Virus record (IMG/VR): IMGVR_UViG_2698536618_000022 | Span: 1-12,119 of that record | DNA length: 12,119 bases | Origin: a virus | Taxonomy: Duplodnaviria; Heunggongvirae; Uroviricota; Caudoviricetes | Reading direction: 5' to 3' (one strand) | Shown here: positions 1 through 10,403 of the stretch, one piece after another | How positions within the stretch are numbered: the first letter of the stretch is position 1 | How the letters are laid out: the number at the start of each line of letters is the position of its first letter | Translations under genes and position numbers: made by a program | Notes under the pieces: generated by a model | Told to the model about the DNA's origin: nothing | Seen by the model: the letters and a program-made list of their open reading frames with translations, nothing else | Databases searched by the model: none

Positions 1-1248
1 ATGGCACTGAATATTCCATTCAGAAATGCGTACTATCGTTTTGCATCCAGTTACTCATTTCTCTTTTTTATTTCCTGGTCGCTGTGGTGGTCGTTATACG
101 CTATTTGGCTGAAAGGACATCTAGGGTTGACAGGGACGGAATTAGGTACACTTTATTCGGTCAACCAGTTTACCAGCATTCTATTTATGATGTTCTACGG
201 CATCGTTCAGGATAAACTCGGTCTGAAGAAACCGCTCATCTGGTGTATGAGTTTCATCCTGGTCTTGACCGGACCGTTTATGATTTACGTTTATGAACCG
301 TTACTGCAAAGCAATTTTTCTGTAGGTCTAATTCTGGGGGCGCTATTTTTTGGCTTGGGGTATCTGGCGGGATGCGGTTTGCTTGATAGCTTCACCGAAA
401 AAATGGCGCGAAATTTTCATTTCGAATATGGAACAGCGCGCGCCTGGGGATCTTTTGGCTATGCTATTGGCGCGTTCTTTGCCGGCATATTTTTTAGTAT
501 CAGTCCCCATATCAACTTCTGGTTGGTCTCGCTATTTGGCGCTGTATTTATGATGATCAACATGTGTTTTAAAGATAAGGATCACCAGTGCGTAGCGGCG
601 GATGCGGGAGGGGTAAAAAAAGAGGATTTTATCGCAGTTTTCAAGGATCGAAACTTCTGGGTTTTCGTCATATTTATTGTGGGGACGTGGTCTTTCTATA
701 ACATTTTTGATCAACAACTTTTTCCTGTCTTTTATGCAGGTTTATTCGAATCACACGATGTAGGAACGCGCCTGTATGGTTATCTCAACTCATTCCAGGT
801 GGTACTCGAAGCGCTATGCATGGCGATTATTCCTTTCTTTGTGAATCGGGTAGGGCCAAAAAATGCATTACTTATCGGTGTTGTGATTATGGCGTTGCGT
901 ATCCTTTCCTGCGCGCTGTTCGTTAACCCCTGGATTATTTCATTAGTGAAGCTGTTACATGCTATTGAGGTTCCACTTTGTGTCATATCCGTCTTCAAAT
1001 ACAGCGTGGCAAATTTTGATAAGCGCCTGTCGTCGACGATCTTTCTGATTGGTTTTCAAATTGCCAGTTCGCTTGGGATTGTGCTGCTTTCAACGCCGAC
1101 TGGGATACTCTTTGACCACGCAGGCTACCAGACAGTTTTCTTCGCAATTTCGGGTATTGTCTGCCTGATGTTGCTATTTGGCATTTTCTTCCTGAGTAAA
1201 AAACGCGAGCAAATAGTTATGGAAACGCCTGTACCTTCAGCAATATAG
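1..1248 (+). CDS. cscB: sucrose:H+ symporter, MFS oligosaccharide/H+ symporter family (LacY-like)
   Basis: 415-aa ORF beginning at window position 1; polytopic hydrophobic profile typical of a 12-TM MFS permease; N-terminus MALNIPFRNAYYRF... matches my recollection of E. coli CscB; family-level similarity to LacY. Confidence 0.85.
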   Translation: MALNIPFRNAYYRFASSYSFLFFISWSLWWSLYAIWLKGHLGLTGTELGTLYSVNQFTSILFMMFYGIVQDKLGLKKPLIWCMSFILVLTGPFMIYVYEPLLQSNFSVGLILGALFFGLGYLAGCGLLDSFTEKMARNFHFEYGTARAWGSFGYAIGAFFAGIFFSISPHINFWLVSLFGAVFMMINMCFKDKDHQCVAADAGGVKKEDFIAVFKDRNFWVFVIFIVGTWSFYNIFDQQLFPVFYAGLFESHDVGTRLYGYLNSFQVVLEALCMAIIPFFVNRVGPKNALLIGVVIMALRILSCALFVNPWIISLVKLLHAIEVPLCVISVFKYSVANFDKRLSSTIFLIGFQIASSLGIVLLSTPTGILFDHAGYQTVFFAISGIVCLMLLFGIFFLSKKREQIVMETPVPSAI

Positions 1249-1776: not shown

Positions 1777-1977
1777 TTACCCATTGGCGCGGCTTAAGAG
1801 CTTATTTTTGAATTCACAATGGTCACGATATAACCATCTTGCTCGCCCGTGGATAACTTTGGCTTTAGGCAGGTCGCCGGACTTAATCCGGTCATAGATG
1901 AAGGTTTTACCGAAGCCAGTATCGGCCATGATGAATTTCAAATCAACCAGTGAATCAGGTTGTAGTTCGTGTTGCAT
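1777..1977 (-). CDS. torI: excisionase / TorR inhibitor TorI (AlpA/Xis-family winged-helix DNA-binding protein)
   Basis: 66-aa ORF MQHELQPDSLVDLKFIMADTGFGKTFIYDRIKSGDLPKAKVIHGRARW...; matches remembered KplE1 TorI; AlpA-like helix-turn-helix core; GGAG SD about 10 nt upstream of the ATG. Confidence 0.85.
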   Translation of the reverse strand: MQHELQPDSLVDLKFIMADTGFGKTFIYDRIKSGDLPKAKVIHGRARWLYRDHCEFKNKLLSRANG

Positions 1978-2559: not shown

Positions 2560-3574
2560 GGTTAACCTCCTGAGGCGGTTCTGGTAGAGGCATCCAGTGG
2601 GTTACATTGCTAATCAGACCATATTCATTAGTTTGAGGATGGTTGCCGCTATCGTCTCCGTATTTAAGACTCTCCATAAAGCCATAATGCCTATCCCCAT
2701 TAACGCTCACAAAGCCGTAATAAGCTGGTATAACGCCGATCTCACACGTAATCAGCAAAGGAAAACTAGTTCTCCAATTTAGCTCGCCGATTACAGGCAT
2801 TCTCTCACTACAGCTTATCCAACCATCCTTAATGCAATTACCTTGACTCTGAAGCATAGCGGCACGACAGGCGTTCCAGCCTCTCACCTCTGCAATAGCG
2901 GCAACAGCATCAACCGCGTACATGCTAAGAGGGTTAGGCATTGGTTTTTCTTCCGGTACTACTGGCGATGGCTGTTTGGCTTCTAAATCAGCAATTCTGT
3001 CAACCACGGCATCGACAGCATCTGAAAAACCGAACCAGTTACTCCACTCCGGCCTATCCCCGGTTGCTGCAAAATACATATCAGCCAAAGCAGCCTCAGC
3101 ATGGTCACGCTCGTTGATGAGTTGCTCTTCGCTTTTCTCCAGTTCAGCAATACGCTTACTCCCATCCGAGATAACGCCTTCGTAATACTCACGCTGCTCG
3201 TTGAGTTTTGATTTTGTCTCCTCAAGCTCAACACGCAGTTTCCCTACCGTTAGCGCAATATCCTCGTTCTCCTGGTCGCGGCGTTTGATGTATTGCTGGT
3301 TTCTTTCCCGTTCATCCAGCAGTGCCAGCACAATAGCCGGATTGGCTGCAGCGATGAATTCAGCATTGGCCTGCTGTTCCATTTGGAAATCTTCATCGAA
3401 ACCGCTTTCTGGATGCGCTCCTTCAATTCTGCAAATGGGAATATATCCAGCAACTTCACGATGAATTAGCGCATCATCACCATCAAATCGGCTCTCTCCA
3501 TATTCGAGCGACCACTCACCACACGTTGCTTTTTCTGCCGCTTCACGCAGTGCCTGATAGTCAATCTTGCTCAC
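2552..3574 (-). CDS. Ea22-like early protein: N-terminal Ead domain, central coiled coil, C-terminal DUF551-like domain
   Basis: 340-aa ORF; N-terminus MSKIDYQALREAAEKATCGEW and motif IAAANPAIVLALLDE are typical of lambda Ea22-family proteins; GTG start with GGAG SD. Confidence 0.75.
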   Translation of the reverse strand: MSKIDYQALREAAEKATCGEWSLEYGESRFDGDDALIHREVAGYIPICRIEGAHPESGFDEDFQMEQQANAEFIAAANPAIVLALLDERERNQQYIKRRDQENEDIALTVGKLRVELEETKSKLNEQREYYEGVISDGSKRIAELEKSEEQLINERDHAEAALADMYFAATGDRPEWSNWFGFSDAVDAVVDRIADLEAKQPSPVVPEEKPMPNPLSMYAVDAVAAIAEVRGWNACRAAMLQSQGNCIKDGWISCSERMPVIGELNWRTSFPLLITCEIGVIPAYYGFVSVNGDRHYGFMESLKYGDDSGNHPQTNEYGLISNVTHWMPLPEPPQEVNRG

Positions 3575-3815
3575 TGGTTGACTCCTGCTTCTCTGCCTTC
3601 AACACCATGCGAGAACCATCATCCAGCCCCCACGCGATCTCACCACCTTCAGCCATGACCAGTCGCCACACCAATTGAGCAGCCTCATTGGTAACATCAC
3701 GACCTGGATCATTGCCAACGCGCATACATCCACCTTCAACATCGCGCATTTTTGCCAGCATGATAGTTTTTGATAGCGGTGAAAAACCAAGCTGTAGTCG
3801 TGCTGAATTACTCAC
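3561..3815 (-). CDS. hypothetical protein (84 aa), GTG start
   Basis: ORF with GGAGG SD upstream of the GTG; start region ggaggcaaccaGTGag is near-identical to that of the Ea22-like gene; overlaps neighbouring genes as in coupled phage operons. Confidence 0.5.
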   Translation of the reverse strand: MSNSARLQLGFSPLSKTIMLAKMRDVEGGCMRVGNDPGRDVTNEAAQLVWRLVMAEGGEIAWGLDDGSRMVLKAEKQESTSEQD

Positions 3816-4769: not shown

Positions 4770-5066
4770 TCAGTCATTACTGATAGCGCCATAGCGTGAG
4801 CGGTAATTACGCAGGCGCGGGTCGATATATTCAGGGAAGTGGGTATATGTGGCTTTGCGGAATGGTCGGATTGATGTCTGGTAAATTCGCTCGCGTTCTT
4901 CTTTCTCTGCAAGCCATATACAGTGGCGAAATTCCTTTTCCTCTTTTGTTTCCTGCGGTAGCGACATTATCCGGTCGTAGTTTTTTCTGAATTTATCCAG
5001 CACCTCCGATACGGAATTGCCGGAACAGCGGCGCGGGTCATCCGCACCATACAGAGGCGCTGGCAT
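4770..5066 (-). CDS. hypothetical basic protein (98 aa)
   Basis: ATG with AAGGAT SD; occupies the position directly distal to the ssb/erf recombination module. Confidence 0.55.
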
Positions 5067-7243: not shown

Positions 7244-7348
7244 TCACTCTTCTACGCGGTCAGCTTTTCTATAATTATCAAATTCGAAATGTTTAATTAC
7301 TTCTTTCGTTTCTCGCTCTATAACTTCAACGATGTATTTCTTATTCAT
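7244..7348 (-). CDS. hypothetical small protein (34 aa)
   Basis: ATG overlaps the stop of the upstream Ead-like gene (TAATG); MNKKYIVEVIERETKEVIKHFEFDNYRKADRVEE; no independent SD, coupling only. Confidence 0.3.
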   Translation of the reverse strand: MNKKYIVEVIERETKEVIKHFEFDNYRKADRVEE

Positions 7349-7644
7349 TACTCATCACCTATGGCTTTTTTGATAGCTTCGAGAGCCTTATTAACAGCTC
7401 CATACCATTCTGGATATGTTGTCGTTGTTCTATTTTTGGATTGCTTAAGTAATAACTGAAGTGCTTCGAGAAGGTCAGGTGCTGCCGCTATTAGATTGGC
7501 ATCTTCAATACATTGAACTTCCTCACAGATTGCAATATACGAACGCCAGCCTGCGCCATTTTCAAGTGAGTCTGCCTGGATGATTTTAATCTCATTGCCA
7601 TCCATCATTATTTCCCACTTACCTTCAGTACCTTTAAATTCCAT
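7348..7644 (-). CDS. small Ead/Ea22-motif protein, paralog A (98 aa)
   Basis: contains IAAAPDLLEALQ and KALEAIKKAIG motifs shared with the ORF at 8285-8545 and with the Ea22-like N-terminal domain; SD AGAGG inside a repeated 30-bp linker. Confidence 0.65.
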   Translation of the reverse strand: MEFKGTEGKWEIMMDGNEIKIIQADSLENGAGWRSYIAICEEVQCIEDANLIAAAPDLLEALQLLLKQSKNRTTTTYPEWYGAVNKALEAIKKAIGDE

Positions 7645-7649
7645 GTTAG

Positions 7650-7679
7650 CCTCTGTTGTTTATGCCAAAAATAAAGGCC
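7650..7679. repeat. 30-bp direct repeat DR2, copy 1 (cctctgttgtttatgccaaaaataaaggcc); second copy at 8551-8580
   Basis: identical 30-mer read directly at both sites, each immediately upstream of an Ead-like paralog and adjoining a terminator-like hairpin. Confidence 0.85.
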
Positions 7680-7683
7680 ACCA

Positions 7684-7884
7684 TCAGGCAGCCTTGTTAT
7701 TCTGTTTACCAAGTTCTCTGGCAATCATTGCCGTCGTTCGCATTGCCCATTTATCGACATATTTCCCATCCTCCATTACAGGAAACATTTCTTCAGGCTT
7801 AACCATGCATTCCGATTGCAGCTTGCATCCATTGCATCGTTTGAATTGTCCACACCATTGATTTGTATCAATAGTCGTAGTCAT
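7684..7884 (-). CDS. ral: Ral-like restriction-alleviation protein (66 aa)
   Basis: MTTTIDTNQWCGQFKRCNGCKLQSECMVKPEEMFPVMEDGKYVDKW... matches my memory of lambda Ral, including length 66 aa; Cys cluster; AGGA SD. Confidence 0.7.
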   Translation of the reverse strand: MTTTIDTNQWCGQFKRCNGCKLQSECMVKPEEMFPVMEDGKYVDKWAMRTTAMIARELGKQNNKAA

Positions 7885-7954
7885 ACGGATAATCCTGGTA
7901 TTGTTCCATCACATCCTGCGGATGCTCTTCGAACTCTTCAAATTCTTCTTCCAT
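7868..7954 (-). CDS. small acidic ORF (28 aa), positional equivalent of lambda orf28
   Basis: ATG with GAGGTG SD 4 nt upstream inside a repeated linker; MEEEFEEFEEHPQDVMEQYQDYPYDYDY; 3' end overlaps the ral start. Confidence 0.4.
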   Translation of the reverse strand: MEEEFEEFEEHPQDVMEQYQDYPYDYDY

Positions 7955-7979
7955 ATATCACCTCAAATAAGTGGTTTGC
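7948..7979. repeat. 32-bp direct repeat DR1, copy 1 (cttccatatatcacctcaaataagtggtttgc); second copy at 8900-8931
   Basis: identical 32-mer at both sites; each carries the SD and start codon (ATGGAAG) of the downstream minus-strand gene; copy 2 also contains the last codons of N. Confidence 0.85.
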
Positions 7980-8009
7980 CGCGAAAAAGTAAAACAAGGA
8001 TACTCACTT

Positions 8010-8284: not shown

Positions 8285-8545
8285 TCAATCGTAATAATCT
8301 TCACCAATAGCTTTGCTAATTGCTGACAGTGCTTTCGATACTTCATCAGGATAATGGTCATTCCAGCTTTGCTTGTATGCCTTGTTTAGCATCGCTTGCA
8401 GAGCTTCAAGCAAATCAGGAGCTGCCTCCATCAATCTCAAATCACCACGATGTATGGTTGTATCGTCAAACGTGACATAAACACCATCATCGTTGAATCC
8501 AGTGCCAACAACACTCCACGGCCTTTTCATTCTTTCTACGGTCAT
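8285..8545 (-). CDS. small Ead/Ea22-motif protein, paralog B (86 aa from the ATG at 8545; the track ORF starts at a GTG at 8551)
   Basis: shares MEAAPDLLEALQ and KALSAISKAIG motifs with paralog A; preceded by DR2 copy 2. Confidence 0.6.
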   Translation of the reverse strand: MTVERMKRPWSVVGTGFNDDGVYVTFDDTTIHRGDLRLMEAAPDLLEALQAMLNKAYKQSWNDHYPDEVSKALSAISKAIGEDYYD

Positions 8546-8550
8546 ATCCA

Positions 8551-8580
8551 CCTCTGTTGTTTATGCCAAAAATAAAGGCC
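8551..8580. repeat. 30-bp direct repeat DR2, copy 2
   Basis: identical to 7650-7679; followed by the minus-strand hairpin GGCCGC-ATAA-TCGGCC with a T-rich tail (terminator-like). Confidence 0.85.
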
Positions 8581-8582
8581 GA

Positions 8583-8906
8583 TTATGCGGCCTTATCTAC
8601 ATTCCTGAACCAAACGCAGATCGGACCGTCTTCTGTATCGTGAATCGAACCGACAAACCATCCTTCTCCATCTGGCATGCTTGGCTCCCATCCACTGATG
8701 TTTGGATTCCCATCTTCAAAATACGCGTCAATTACCGTTTGATTGTTGTCGTTTCCCATTTCAACAATTGATGATTCAATGCCATGCTGCTTGCAGAAAG
8801 ATCTGAACTCATCAGCTGAAATTACCTCTCTATCCCCAAACAGGTTGGCGTATTCTGGGTGCGTCCAGTAGCCATCCTCGCTTCGCTCTACTACTAATGC
8901 TTCCAT
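8583..8906 (-). CDS. strongly acidic hypothetical protein (107 aa)
   Basis: ATG with GAGGTG SD inside DR1 copy 2; by my count 22 Asp+Glu versus 6 Arg+Lys; first gene after N. Confidence 0.65.
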   Translation of the reverse strand: MEALVVERSEDGYWTHPEYANLFGDREVISADEFRSFCKQHGIESSIVEMGNDNNQTVIDAYFEDGNPNISGWEPSMPDGEGWFVGSIHDTEDGPICVWFRNVDKAA

Positions 8907-8931
8907 ATATCACCTCAAATAAGTGGTTTGC
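8900..8931. repeat. 32-bp direct repeat DR1, copy 2
   Basis: identical to 7948-7979; overlaps the 3' end of N and the start of the acidic ORF. Confidence 0.85.
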
Positions 8932-9214
8932 TGCCTAATTTCATTTTCTGGCGACCAACACAAGTCACACCCATTTCACTGCGTGGCTTGCGGTAGTAAA
9001 TACGGTTCTGTTTACTCTCGACTTCTTCTGCCTTCTTACAGCGAAGGCTTCCGAGTGATGCTGCTTTATCTGCTCTGACGCAACCAGAGAGCTTTAGCGC
9101 AATTTTTCGCGCCAGTCGCTGCTCTTGCATTGCCTGTTCACGTTGAGCCTGTCTGCGTGCTCTGCGGCGATTTCTGGCGTTATCGTCAGCCAGATATGTA
9201 ATGACTACTGTCAT
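8915..9214 (-). CDS. N: N-type transcription antitermination protein (phage-21-like N)
   Basis: 99 aa from MTVVITYLADDNARNRRRARRQAQ (arginine-rich motif); C-terminus ...RIYYRKPRSEMGVTCVGRQKMKLGSKPLI resembles the lambda/phi21 N C-termini as I recall them; GGAGG SD; nutL lies upstream on the same transcript. Confidence 0.85.
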   Translation of the reverse strand: MTVVITYLADDNARNRRRARRQAQREQAMQEQRLARKIALKLSGCVRADKAASLGSLRCKKAEEVESKQNRIYYRKPRSEMGVTCVGRQKMKLGSKPLI

Positions 9215-9254: not shown

Positions 9255-9374
9255 TTATTTGTTTTTGCGTTGCCACATCCAGTCATCTACTTCAGACCAG
9301 ATAGTGAAACCGAAGCCGATGGCGAATGTGTTAACTAAACCACCGAGAATTGGGTTGGTCATGATGTCTAACAT
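9255..9374 (-). CDS. small hydrophobic ORF (39 aa) in the N leader
   Basis: ATG preceded by TGAGGA SD at about 7 nt; MLDIMTNPILGGLVNTFAIGFGFTIWSEVDDWMWQRKNK has one predicted TM segment; not in the ORF track (under 60 aa). Confidence 0.4.
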   Translation of the reverse strand: MLDIMTNPILGGLVNTFAIGFGFTIWSEVDDWMWQRKNK

Positions 9375-9546
9375 TTTCTGTTCCTCAGATGATTAGCTTT
9401 GGTGGTGTGGTAGGTGGGAGACCCATTTCGACCCGCTTCGTCCGACTTCAATTCGGCAATAGTCCCGCAGGCCTCGCCGCTTTACGTGCGACATATTCCC
9501 GTCCATGAACCCTTCACCACACCCCAAAGCCAACTACTCTTTGGTT

Positions 9547-9587
9547 CCCGCATTTCGGCGGGACAATCCCATCAATGTTAAAGAGCC
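9547..9587 (-). promoter_or_regulatory. nutL (boxA GGCTCTTTAACA, boxB hairpin CCCGCCGAAATGCGGG)
   Basis: boxA-like element followed 13 nt later by a hairpin identical to the boxB at nutR; located between PL and N on the minus strand. Confidence 0.75.
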
Positions 9588-9624: not shown

Positions 9625-9715
9625 ATGGCTTAAATTTAAGATCTCTTTAATTAATGGTCAAGAGTATTTTTGAAGAAAACTTAAATTTTCTTTCGTAACT
9701 TAAGTTTGGCTTTGA
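9625..9715 (-). promoter_or_regulatory. PL promoter with OL operators (P22-type 18-bp operators)
   Basis: minus-strand -35 TTGACC (9656-9661), 17-bp spacer, -10 TAAATT (9633-9638); operator ATTTAAGATCTCTTTAAT at 9634-9651 plus two degenerate copies near 9679-9696 and 9698-9715. Confidence 0.6.
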
Positions 9716-9752: not shown

Positions 9753-10403
9753 TTATGGAAGGTTTGCTAGTTTTGCATCGACAACTACGCCGATGATTTT
9801 GCAGTTTCCGTTGATCTCGATCATCGGATATTGTGGGTTAAGTGGTTTTAGAAACTTCCTGCCTGCATCAATAACTAACTTCTTGAAAGTTGCCTCGTTT
9901 TCTCCTTCGAGCTTTGCAACTACCAGTTTCCCGTTACGCGGCTCTACTTCAGGATCGACGAGTATTATCATTCCTTCAGGGATACTGAGACCGGCCGGAG
10001 CCGTCATTGAGTCTCCCTTCACGTCCAACCAAAACGAATCTTCTGAACAGTCTACGGTTGTATCGTACCAGTTATCTATTGCACGCTTATGATATGGTTC
10101 CACAGCTTCCATCCAGCATCCTGCGCTCACCCAGCTAATCAGAGGGTATGACCCTCTTGGATCATGCCTACTGTGATAGGCAATGTTTGAAAGACTTTCC
10201 TCTCCTTTCATCAGATAGTCAGGGGAACACTTCAACGCATTAGCCAGGGCGAGAAGATTCTCTCCATTTGGCTCTGTCTCAGAGCGTTCCCACTGAGATA
10301 TGGCAACATTAGACACGCCGACCATCTTTCCAAGTGCGGCCTGCCTGATCTTGAGTTCTTTTCTCCGAGCGCGAATGCGCTCTCCCATCAATTGAGTTTT
10401 CAT
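9753..10403 (-). CDS. c2: CI-type prophage repressor, P22 C2-like (HTH plus LexA-like S24 autopeptidase domain)
   Basis: 216 aa; MKTQLMGERIRARRKELKIRQAALGKMVGVSNVAISQWERSETEPNGENLLALANAL... matches remembered P22 C2; GDSM serine motif and VVAKL lysine of the S24 catalytic dyad. Confidence 0.95.
   Translation of the reverse strand: MKTQLMGERIRARRKELKIRQAALGKMVGVSNVAISQWERSETEPNGENLLALANALKCSPDYLMKGEESLSNIAYHSRHDPRGSYPLISWVSAGCWMEAVEPYHKRAIDNWYDTTVDCSEDSFWLDVKGDSMTAPAGLSIPEGMIILVDPEVEPRNGKLVVAKLEGENEATFKKLVIDAGRKFLKPLNPQYPMIEINGNCKIIGVVVDAKLANLP

Follow-up and report, generated by a model that had tools for sequence, protein, structure and literature searches.

A strongly acidic protein encoded next to N in a lambdoid prophage is the ortholog of mEp213 orf184 and occupies an early-left cassette slot

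Introduction

What does a strongly acidic protein of 107 residues do for a lambdoid phage when its gene directly follows the antiterminator gene N, in a slot that is equivalent to that of ral (restriction alleviation)? A preliminary description of this locus, made from position and composition, took the protein for a candidate anti-restriction or anti-defence factor and likened it to DNA-mimic anti-restriction proteins such as Ocr and ArdA. Here we analyse the gene (hereafter the target) within the window, that is, the whole 12,119-nt stretch of DNA, together with its family, its published relative, its predicted structure and the cassettes that fill the same slot in other lambdoid loci.

Results

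The target is a conserved gene and the ortholog of mEp213 orf184

The target ORF lies on the minus strand and encodes 107 residues followed by a stop codon (Table 1). Its composition, 22 Asp and Glu residues against six Lys and Arg, reproduces the earlier count exactly and corresponds to a pI of 4.1 and a net charge of about −16; such acidity is not distinctive within the window, where eight other leftward ORFs have pI values of 4.2–4.9. The ORF is clearly a real, conserved gene: the E-values of its homologues reach 1e-66, and the family numbers about 1000 representative clusters. Specifically, residues 1–106 align to phrog_1372 (E 9.6e-44), a family annotated without function in PHROGs, and both core motifs of the family, VxRDxxGxWxHP and WxPxxPxGxGWFxxSIHDTEDGPxCxWxR, are found in the target, the first comprising V6, R8, G12, W14, H16 and P17 and the second extending from W73 to R101. 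Scans of Pfam, NCBIfam and PADLOC gave no match (Pfam and PADLOC at E <= 0.1), phmmer and profile searches against PDB sequences returned only chance matches (E > 0.5), and a Foldseek search of BFVD returned only uncharacterised phage relatives. In line with the earlier remark that the protein carries no recognisable enzymatic motif, it matches no enzyme family or fold.

The target is the ortholog, in a lambdoid prophage, of mEp213 gp45 (mEp213_045, 'orf184'), with which it shares 97% identity across all 107 residues, the three substitutions being V28A, S36Y and G51E. The mEp213 protein (AFM76385.1) is UDP0184/ORF184 in the supplementary material of Silas et al. (bioRxiv 10.1101/2023.04.06.535777), and the ORF184 AlphaFold model deposited with that work begins MEALVVERSEDGYWT and differs from the target at three positions. 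The orf184 sequence is absent from the supplements of Silas et al. (Nat Commun 2025), and full-text literature searches returned no mention of the accession numbers, the phrog identifier or the peptide motifs. The gene is already known in that a 97%-identical allele has been synthesised, screened and reported as a trigger of gop-beta-cII.

According to Silas et al. (2023, bioRxiv 10.1101/2023.04.06.535777), orf184 has a wide distribution in coliphages, shares its accessory region with ral and is grouped with 'counter-defense-associated' accessory genes. In ECOR59, orf184 activates the gop-beta-cII system of a P4-like satellite and causes cell death; Tn5 suppressors of this lethality map to beta and gop, and the effect has been reconstituted in a laboratory strain (bioRxiv 10.1101/2023.04.06.535777). 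The gop-beta-cII system protects against lambda and P1, and gop and beta are thought to act as a toxin-antitoxin pair (Rousset et al., PMC9122126). Among Gop, Beta and CII of P4, only Beta matches a Pfam family (Beta_protein, PF14350; Beta pI 5.3), and Gop has predicted N-terminal hydrophobic segments. Because of its 97% identity to the mEp213 allele, which is the source of the gop-beta-cII phenotype and on which the functional statements made here about the target rest, the target likely triggers gop-beta-cII cell death as well.

Like mEp213 orf184, the target lies in the early-left region downstream of an N gene and within the ral accessory region; unlike the target locus, mEp213 has a 74-aa gene between N and orf184 and a different downstream neighbour. 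The early-left region of mEp213 carries two different annotated N genes in tandem (1953-2285 and 3438-3710), with orf184 located after the second.

The target appears to be cotranscribed with N from a pL-like promoter

The target was described as the first gene after N, and it begins 8 nt past the N stop codon (N TGA at 8917-8915 and target ATG at 8906-8904, minus strand), with a Shine-Dalgarno sequence that overlaps this stop codon. N itself has a GGAGG ribosome-binding site ahead of its ATG at 9214, and the longest ORF extends to 9286. Upstream of N lie a pL-like promoter and a boxA plus boxB-like hairpin, the latter being a putative nutL by its resemblance to known nut sites. At the other end of the target, a terminator-like hairpin (stem at 8594-8575; folding energy −11 kcal/mol, z −2.0) overlaps its last codons and is the first terminator-like site downstream of pL; the consensus terminator scan found none between pL and 8594. 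Since no terminator-like site separates pL from this hairpin, the target appears to be cotranscribed with N from pL before antitermination, as would an immediate-early gene, a status based on consensus scans for promoters and terminators.

The gene order leftward of the target is a phrog_1273 gene, a phrog_11941 gene, orf28, ral and a second phrog_1273 gene, followed farther left by DUF2528 (which corresponds to lambda ea10 in position and length), ERF, an SSB-like ORF, Abc2 and Ead/Ea22 with DUF551. A repressor gene of the S24/HTH type on the other side of pL completes these lambdoid early-left surroundings.

Several minor features of the window deserve mention. The pL operon of the target already holds two established counter-defence genes, abc2 (anti-RecBCD) and ral. 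Between the nutL-like site and N lies a 39-codon ORF (MLDIMTNPILGGLVNTFAIGFGFTIWSEVDDWMWQRKNK) with its own GAGGA ribosome-binding site, whose hydrophobic product resembles a small membrane peptide in the N leader. A gene for a LacY-family sugar symporter/permease, outside the prophage, abuts its left end; Pfam gave no match for the first ORF on the phage side, and the window contains no integrase gene and no tRNA gene.

Table 1. Coordinates of the target and of the surrounding features in the window
Feature	Position	Strand	Basis or remark
S24/HTH repressor	9753-10403		lambdoid early-left surroundings
pL-like promoter, TTGACC, 17-nt spacer, TAAATT	9633..9661	-	promoter scan, 9/12 matches
nutL-like element (putative), boxA GCTCTTTAACA (9586-9576) and boxB-like hairpin TCCCGC-CGAAAT-GCGGGA (9563-9546)	9546..9586	-	sequence reading
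39-codon ORF	9256-9374	-	
Antiterminator N, arginine-rich motif near N terminus	8915..9214	-	phrog_271, E 2e-37
Junction repeat D1, target copy	8886..8934	-	86% identity to 7934-7982
Shine-Dalgarno GAGGTG, 4 nt ahead of target ATG	8911..8916	-	sequence reading
Target CDS (orf184 ortholog), acidic, phrog_1372 family	8583..8906	-	ORF translation and PHROG match
Intrinsic-terminator-like hairpin, AAGGCCGCAUAAUCGGCCUU and UAUUUUU	8565..8594	-	terminator scan
Junction repeat D3, target copy	8551..8580	-	100% identical to 7650-7679
phrog_1273 paralogue A, conserved right-hand anchor of the slot, likely start ATG 8545	8285..8551	-	
Junction repeat D1, second copy, ahead of orf28	7934..7982	-	direct repeat
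orf28, 28 codons, overlaps ral start as in lambda	7868..7954	-	translation and lambda annotation
ral, restriction alleviation	7684..7884	-	PF11058, E 1e-47; phrog_1055
Junction repeat D3, second copy, after ral	7650..7679	-	direct repeat
phrog_1273 paralogue B	7348..7644	-	anchor for hotspot survey
abc2	4770-5066	-	PF11043, E 4e-62
First phage-side ORF	1777-1977	-	
LacY-family sugar symporter/permease gene	1-1248	+	

The target and orf28 plus ral share their junctions

The preliminary description had read the region as a set of repeat-defined modules, and both direct-repeat pairs, D1 and D3, are confirmed here (Table 1). The target copy of D1 contains the last N codons, the Shine-Dalgarno sequence and ATGGAAG, which encodes the initial Met-Glu of the target, and D3 contains the U-tract of the terminator together with the 3' half of its stem, and also the phrog_1273 ribosome-binding site. 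The second module holds orf28 and ral between the same junction repeats, which bears out the view of the target position as a ral-equivalent slot. In lambda, the D3 sequence follows ral with four substitutions, and a D1-related sequence precedes orf28. The shared D1 and D3 junctions, together with these related sequences in lambda, indicate that the target and orf28 plus ral are alternative cassettes, present here in tandem. The target thus shares with ral the upstream and downstream junction repeats, the terminator tail and the C-terminal codons (...KAA), whereas the proteins themselves are dissimilar: Ral is a 66-aa, Cys-rich, basic protein (pI 8.4–8.8) that has no sequence similarity to the 107-aa target of pI 4.1.

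The two phrog_1273 paralogues have diverged from each other, and each follows a cassette and an identical 30-nt junction. A block comprising cassette, terminator and anchor has thus undergone tandem duplication.

The N-proximal slot is a cassette hotspot

To survey the slot, we used the phrog_1273 gene as an anchor, fetched 80 IMG/VR loci and clustered the ORFs upstream of the anchor in the 79 loci that had upstream sequence. Among these 79 lambdoid loci, at least 14 alternative cassettes lie directly upstream of the anchor, and in most loci the gap between cassette and anchor is 32–53 nt. The commonest cargo encodes a phrog_2471 protein (83 aa, pI 4.2; 17 loci), followed by ral (14 loci), phrog_1636 (11), the target (9), Nmad5 (7), the acidic DUF7167 protein (63 aa, pI 4.4; 5) and the membrane-protein-like c28 of phrog_3054 (5); several cassettes are rarer, including one PAPS-reductase-like gene. 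A C-terminal ...KAA is common to Ral, the phrog_2471 protein and the target, so that the junction falls within the 3' end of the coding sequence and the terminator stem. The N-proximal slot is a cassette hotspot that extends from the end of N to the terminator tail before the phrog_1273 gene. As an argument for an anti-defence role of the target, the hotspot is weak: most of the alternative cassettes are without assigned function, and the slot is not purely anti-defence, since c28 resembles a membrane protein.

The family is widespread, acidic and often modular

An exhaustive profile search recovered 1009 representative clusters (at 50% identity), and tblastn found homologues in phages of Burkholderia, Pseudomonas, Vibrio, Erwinia, Klebsiella, Yersinia, Pectobacterium and Ralstonia. 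Homologues also occur in phage-plasmids, where they neighbour Ead_Ea22, DUF4406, Metallophos and DUF968 genes, and in 2034 plasmid records, of which 1763 are conjugative; in plasmids they are located in gaps of the tra operon or between finO and repA. The target allele itself is present in 41 of 5426 complete E. coli genomes. Means taken over 185 copies of the domain are 21.2 for Asp plus Glu, 7.0 for Lys plus Arg and 4.29 for the pI, so that the negative charge is a conserved trait of the family. The target is a single copy of a widespread, strongly acidic domain of about 105 residues that is carried by phages, phage-plasmids and conjugative plasmids.

In about half of the best 150 family representatives, the domain is embedded as a module of a longer protein. 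With the metagenome gene calls that make up these fusion ORFs taken as called, the partners above Pfam gathering scores are Lar_restr_allev (three), Tad2-like (one), Rv2179c-like exonuclease (two), KTSC (one) and DHH/DHHA1 (one). The Lar domain (PF14354) occurs only as a fusion partner, in the representatives P0070, P0167 and P0184, and is not part of the target itself; the remaining partners are mostly Ea22-like coiled coils or domains without known function. Such multidomain relatives carry the domain as one module among others, as do polyvalent or modular early proteins of the Ead/Ea22 kind and those with Lar or Tad2-like domains; unlike in these proteins, the domain stands alone in the target, and it has no Pfam model.

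A recurrent partner domain accounts for 17 of 75 extensions and may stand on either side of the orf184 domain (P0062, P0088, P0089, P0102, P0126, P0177 and others). Its motif reads AERxRQ...GWTxEHDD...AAxxY...WPW...WKPS...LVKAGALILAEIERLDR; it has no Pfam match and matches several PHROGs without assigned function.

On pKpQIL-type plasmids (L003, Klebsiella IncF plasmid NZ_CP015824.1, 8345-9955; L016, 3662-5291), the homologue lies between finO and repA, overlaps the end of a DUF2726 (nuclease-like) gene by 4 nt and adjoins a gene for a phospholipase-D family nuclease. On other F-type plasmids it lies between traV and traC or between traW and traU. The IncF overlap made the protein a candidate antitoxin or immunity factor against the neighbouring DUF2726 or phospholipase-D nucleases, a role that was rejected because other plasmids, and phages, do not preserve this pairing. 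Functional coupling to the phrog_1273 and phrog_11941 genes downstream was likewise rejected: the target is found without phrog_11941, and it has other neighbours in E2348/69 and mEp213.

The predicted monomer is compact and its acidic groups are evenly spread

The AF2 model (pLDDT 87) has an alpha/beta fold for which no solved relative was found. The charge pattern was analysed on the C-alpha and charged-group atoms of the deposited ORF184 model, whose consecutive C-alpha distances of 3.66–3.95 Å show that the transcription is sound. The modelled monomer is a compact globule of 41x33x23 Å with a radius of gyration of 14 Å. Its 23 carboxylates have a mean resultant length of 0.17, compared with 0.19 expected for uniform points, and therefore do not form an acidic array along one face or axis. 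The six basic groups all lie in one half of the model, and three of them are salt-bridged (R26-E33, R101-E44 and K105-E2).

The conserved residues mostly form a buried aromatic core. In particular, H16, W14, W73, W83, F84, I88, W99 and R101 are buried and look structural, whereas conservation and exposure coincide in one patch only, the hairpin tip T91-E92-D93 together with D90 and H89, close to the acidic columns 51 and 53. Six residues, H16, H89, D90, E92, D93 and C97, are nearly invariant in the family. In the model, H16 and H89 are about 14 Å apart and C97 is buried between strands; a His/Cys metal site formed by H16, H89 and C97 was rejected because these residues are too far apart.

Discussion

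The explanation that best accommodates these results, and whose chances we judge to be about even, is that the target is an early-made, non-enzymatic effector that binds a protein of the host or of a rival element and that is detected by gop-beta-cII. Such an effector would be made in stoichiometric amounts at the very start of infection and would bind and neutralise its partner through its negative surface; the conserved acidic hairpin tip (H89-D-T-E-D-G94) may dock into a basic nucleic-acid-binding or nucleotide-binding site, a binding surface proposed from the predicted monomer. This explanation draws on the dispensable nature of a cassette that alternates with ral, its likely immediate-early expression, its spread among mobile elements, the Lar and Tad2-like fusions of its relatives and the sensing by an abortive-infection system. 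Sensing of a 97%-identical protein by gop-beta-cII is the behaviour expected of a counter-defence effector that is guarded by back-up abortive infection and resembles the case of Ocr, which is sensed by PARIS, in that the sensor of orf184 is an abortive-infection system from a P4-type satellite hotspot. Against the effector explanation stand the fusion partners, most of which are Ea22-like coiled coils or domains without known function, and the screen of Silas et al., in which orf184 showed no counter-defence phenotype and was recorded as a cell-death trigger only. An anti-defence role of the target is plausible but unproven.

A bolder proposal, possible but in our estimation rather doubtful, is that the orf184 domain is the first representative of a new class of counter-defence or anti-guardian proteins, very widespread and with a novel fold. 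Phages would express it from their first transcript and conjugative plasmids from within their tra operons, its acidic hairpin would block an immune or DNA-surveillance protein that is conserved in proteobacteria, and gop-beta-cII would have evolved to detect that activity.

It seems unlikely that the protein has nothing to do with defence and is instead an accessory to the biology of the mobile element itself, modulating for example replication, recombination, transcription or host physiology, comparable to modular early proteins of the Ead/Ea22 type. The frequent fusion to Ea22-like coiled-coil segments and to the recurrent partner domain would fit such a role, as would the Ead_Ea22, DUF4406, Metallophos and DUF968 neighbours in phage-plasmids, the location of the plasmid copies within tra operons rather than in leading regions, and the published screen. 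However, the gene behaves as a dispensable, sporadic cassette, present in 41 of 5426 complete E. coli genomes and in nine of 79 anchored loci, that alternates with ral and with nucleotide-modification-associated genes; moreover, its mEp213 allele triggers an abortive-infection system, and relatives are fused to Lar and Tad2-like domains.

We consider it quite improbable that the target is an Ocr/ArdA-type mimic of B-form DNA, which would occupy the DNA-binding groove of type I (and III) restriction enzymes or BREX. Like Ocr (T7 gp0.3) and ArdA, the target is a small, very acidic protein of a mobile element that would be made at the very start of entry. It has the large net negative charge of these proteins, a property that extends to its whole family, it shares its slot with ral, its expression is likely immediate-early, and three relatives are fused to the Lar restriction-alleviation domain. 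Small DNA mimics are known to have mutually unrelated folds, so that a missing fold match is compatible with mimicry. Nevertheless, the homology and charge-pattern checks suggested in the preliminary description both went against this mechanism. Neither in sequence nor in fold does the target resemble a solved anti-restriction protein, with no Pfam match at E <= 0.1 to Ocr (PF08684), Ral (PF11058), Lar (PF14354), ArdA or ArdB/KlcA and no similarity to the solved structures of Ocr or ArdA. The elongated carboxylate array resembling B-DNA phosphates, which is a feature of Ocr and ArdA, is absent from the ORF184 monomer model, where the acidic groups point in nearly uniform directions from a compact globule.

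The published screen points the same way. Ocr, Ral and ArdA were recovered there as host-sensitising proteins that raised plaquing, whereas orf184 was not among them and has no recorded anti-restriction phenotype; the recorded triggers were Ocr, ArdA and Aop1 for Ronin, an HsdMS-based decoy, and Ocr for EcoR22I, and orf184 was recorded for gop-beta-cII only (Silas et al.). Ral, whose slot the target shares, acts by hyperactivating a methyltransferase and not by mimicry (Silas et al.). Ocr-like DNA mimicry is not supported. Of the initial proposal, the anti-restriction or anti-defence candidacy gains from the position of the gene, the conserved acidity, the Lar and Tad2-like fusions and the grouping of orf184, whereas the Ocr/ArdA-type mechanism falls away.

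Very little probability attaches to a weapon against satellites or competing prophages, which might bind P4 Beta (the presumed antitoxin) or another satellite factor and thereby release Gop toxicity. Such an activity would agree with the Tn5 suppressors in both beta and gop, with the presumed toxin-antitoxin pairing of a system that confers protection from lambda and P1 (PMC9122126), with the predicted hydrophobic segments of Gop and with the membership of Beta in PF14350. On the other hand, the family extends far beyond the hosts of P4-like satellites, to phages of Burkholderia, Pseudomonas, Vibrio and Ralstonia and to Klebsiella IncF plasmids, Beta is itself acidic and therefore a poor partner for a protein with a charge of −16, and lambda is restricted by gop-beta-cII yet lacks the gene between N and gam.

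Least probable is a small enzyme, for example a metal-dependent hydrolase using the conserved His, Asp, Glu and Cys residues, since the near invariance of H16, H89, D90, E92, D93 and C97 and the fusion of relatives to DHH phosphoesterase and exonuclease domains are outweighed by the modelled distance between H16 and H89 and the burial of C97, which leave no common site, by the structural look of the buried residues, among them R101 paired with E44 (as R26 is with E33), and by the absence of a match to any enzyme family or fold.

The breadth of the domain (about 1000 clusters when grouped at 50% identity, and over 2000 plasmid records) and its conserved acidity make its role in phages worth pursuing. 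Finding the protein to which it binds would explain what gop-beta-cII guards, and could add a broadly distributed anti-defence mechanism that phages have in common with conjugative plasmids. Our survey further delimits a compact hotspot for cassettes, between the end of N and the terminator tail, whose other cargos are further candidates: phrog_2471, phrog_1636, DUF7167 and two further small acidic proteins, phrog_37822 (60 aa) and phrog_7393 (55 aa, pI 4.05).
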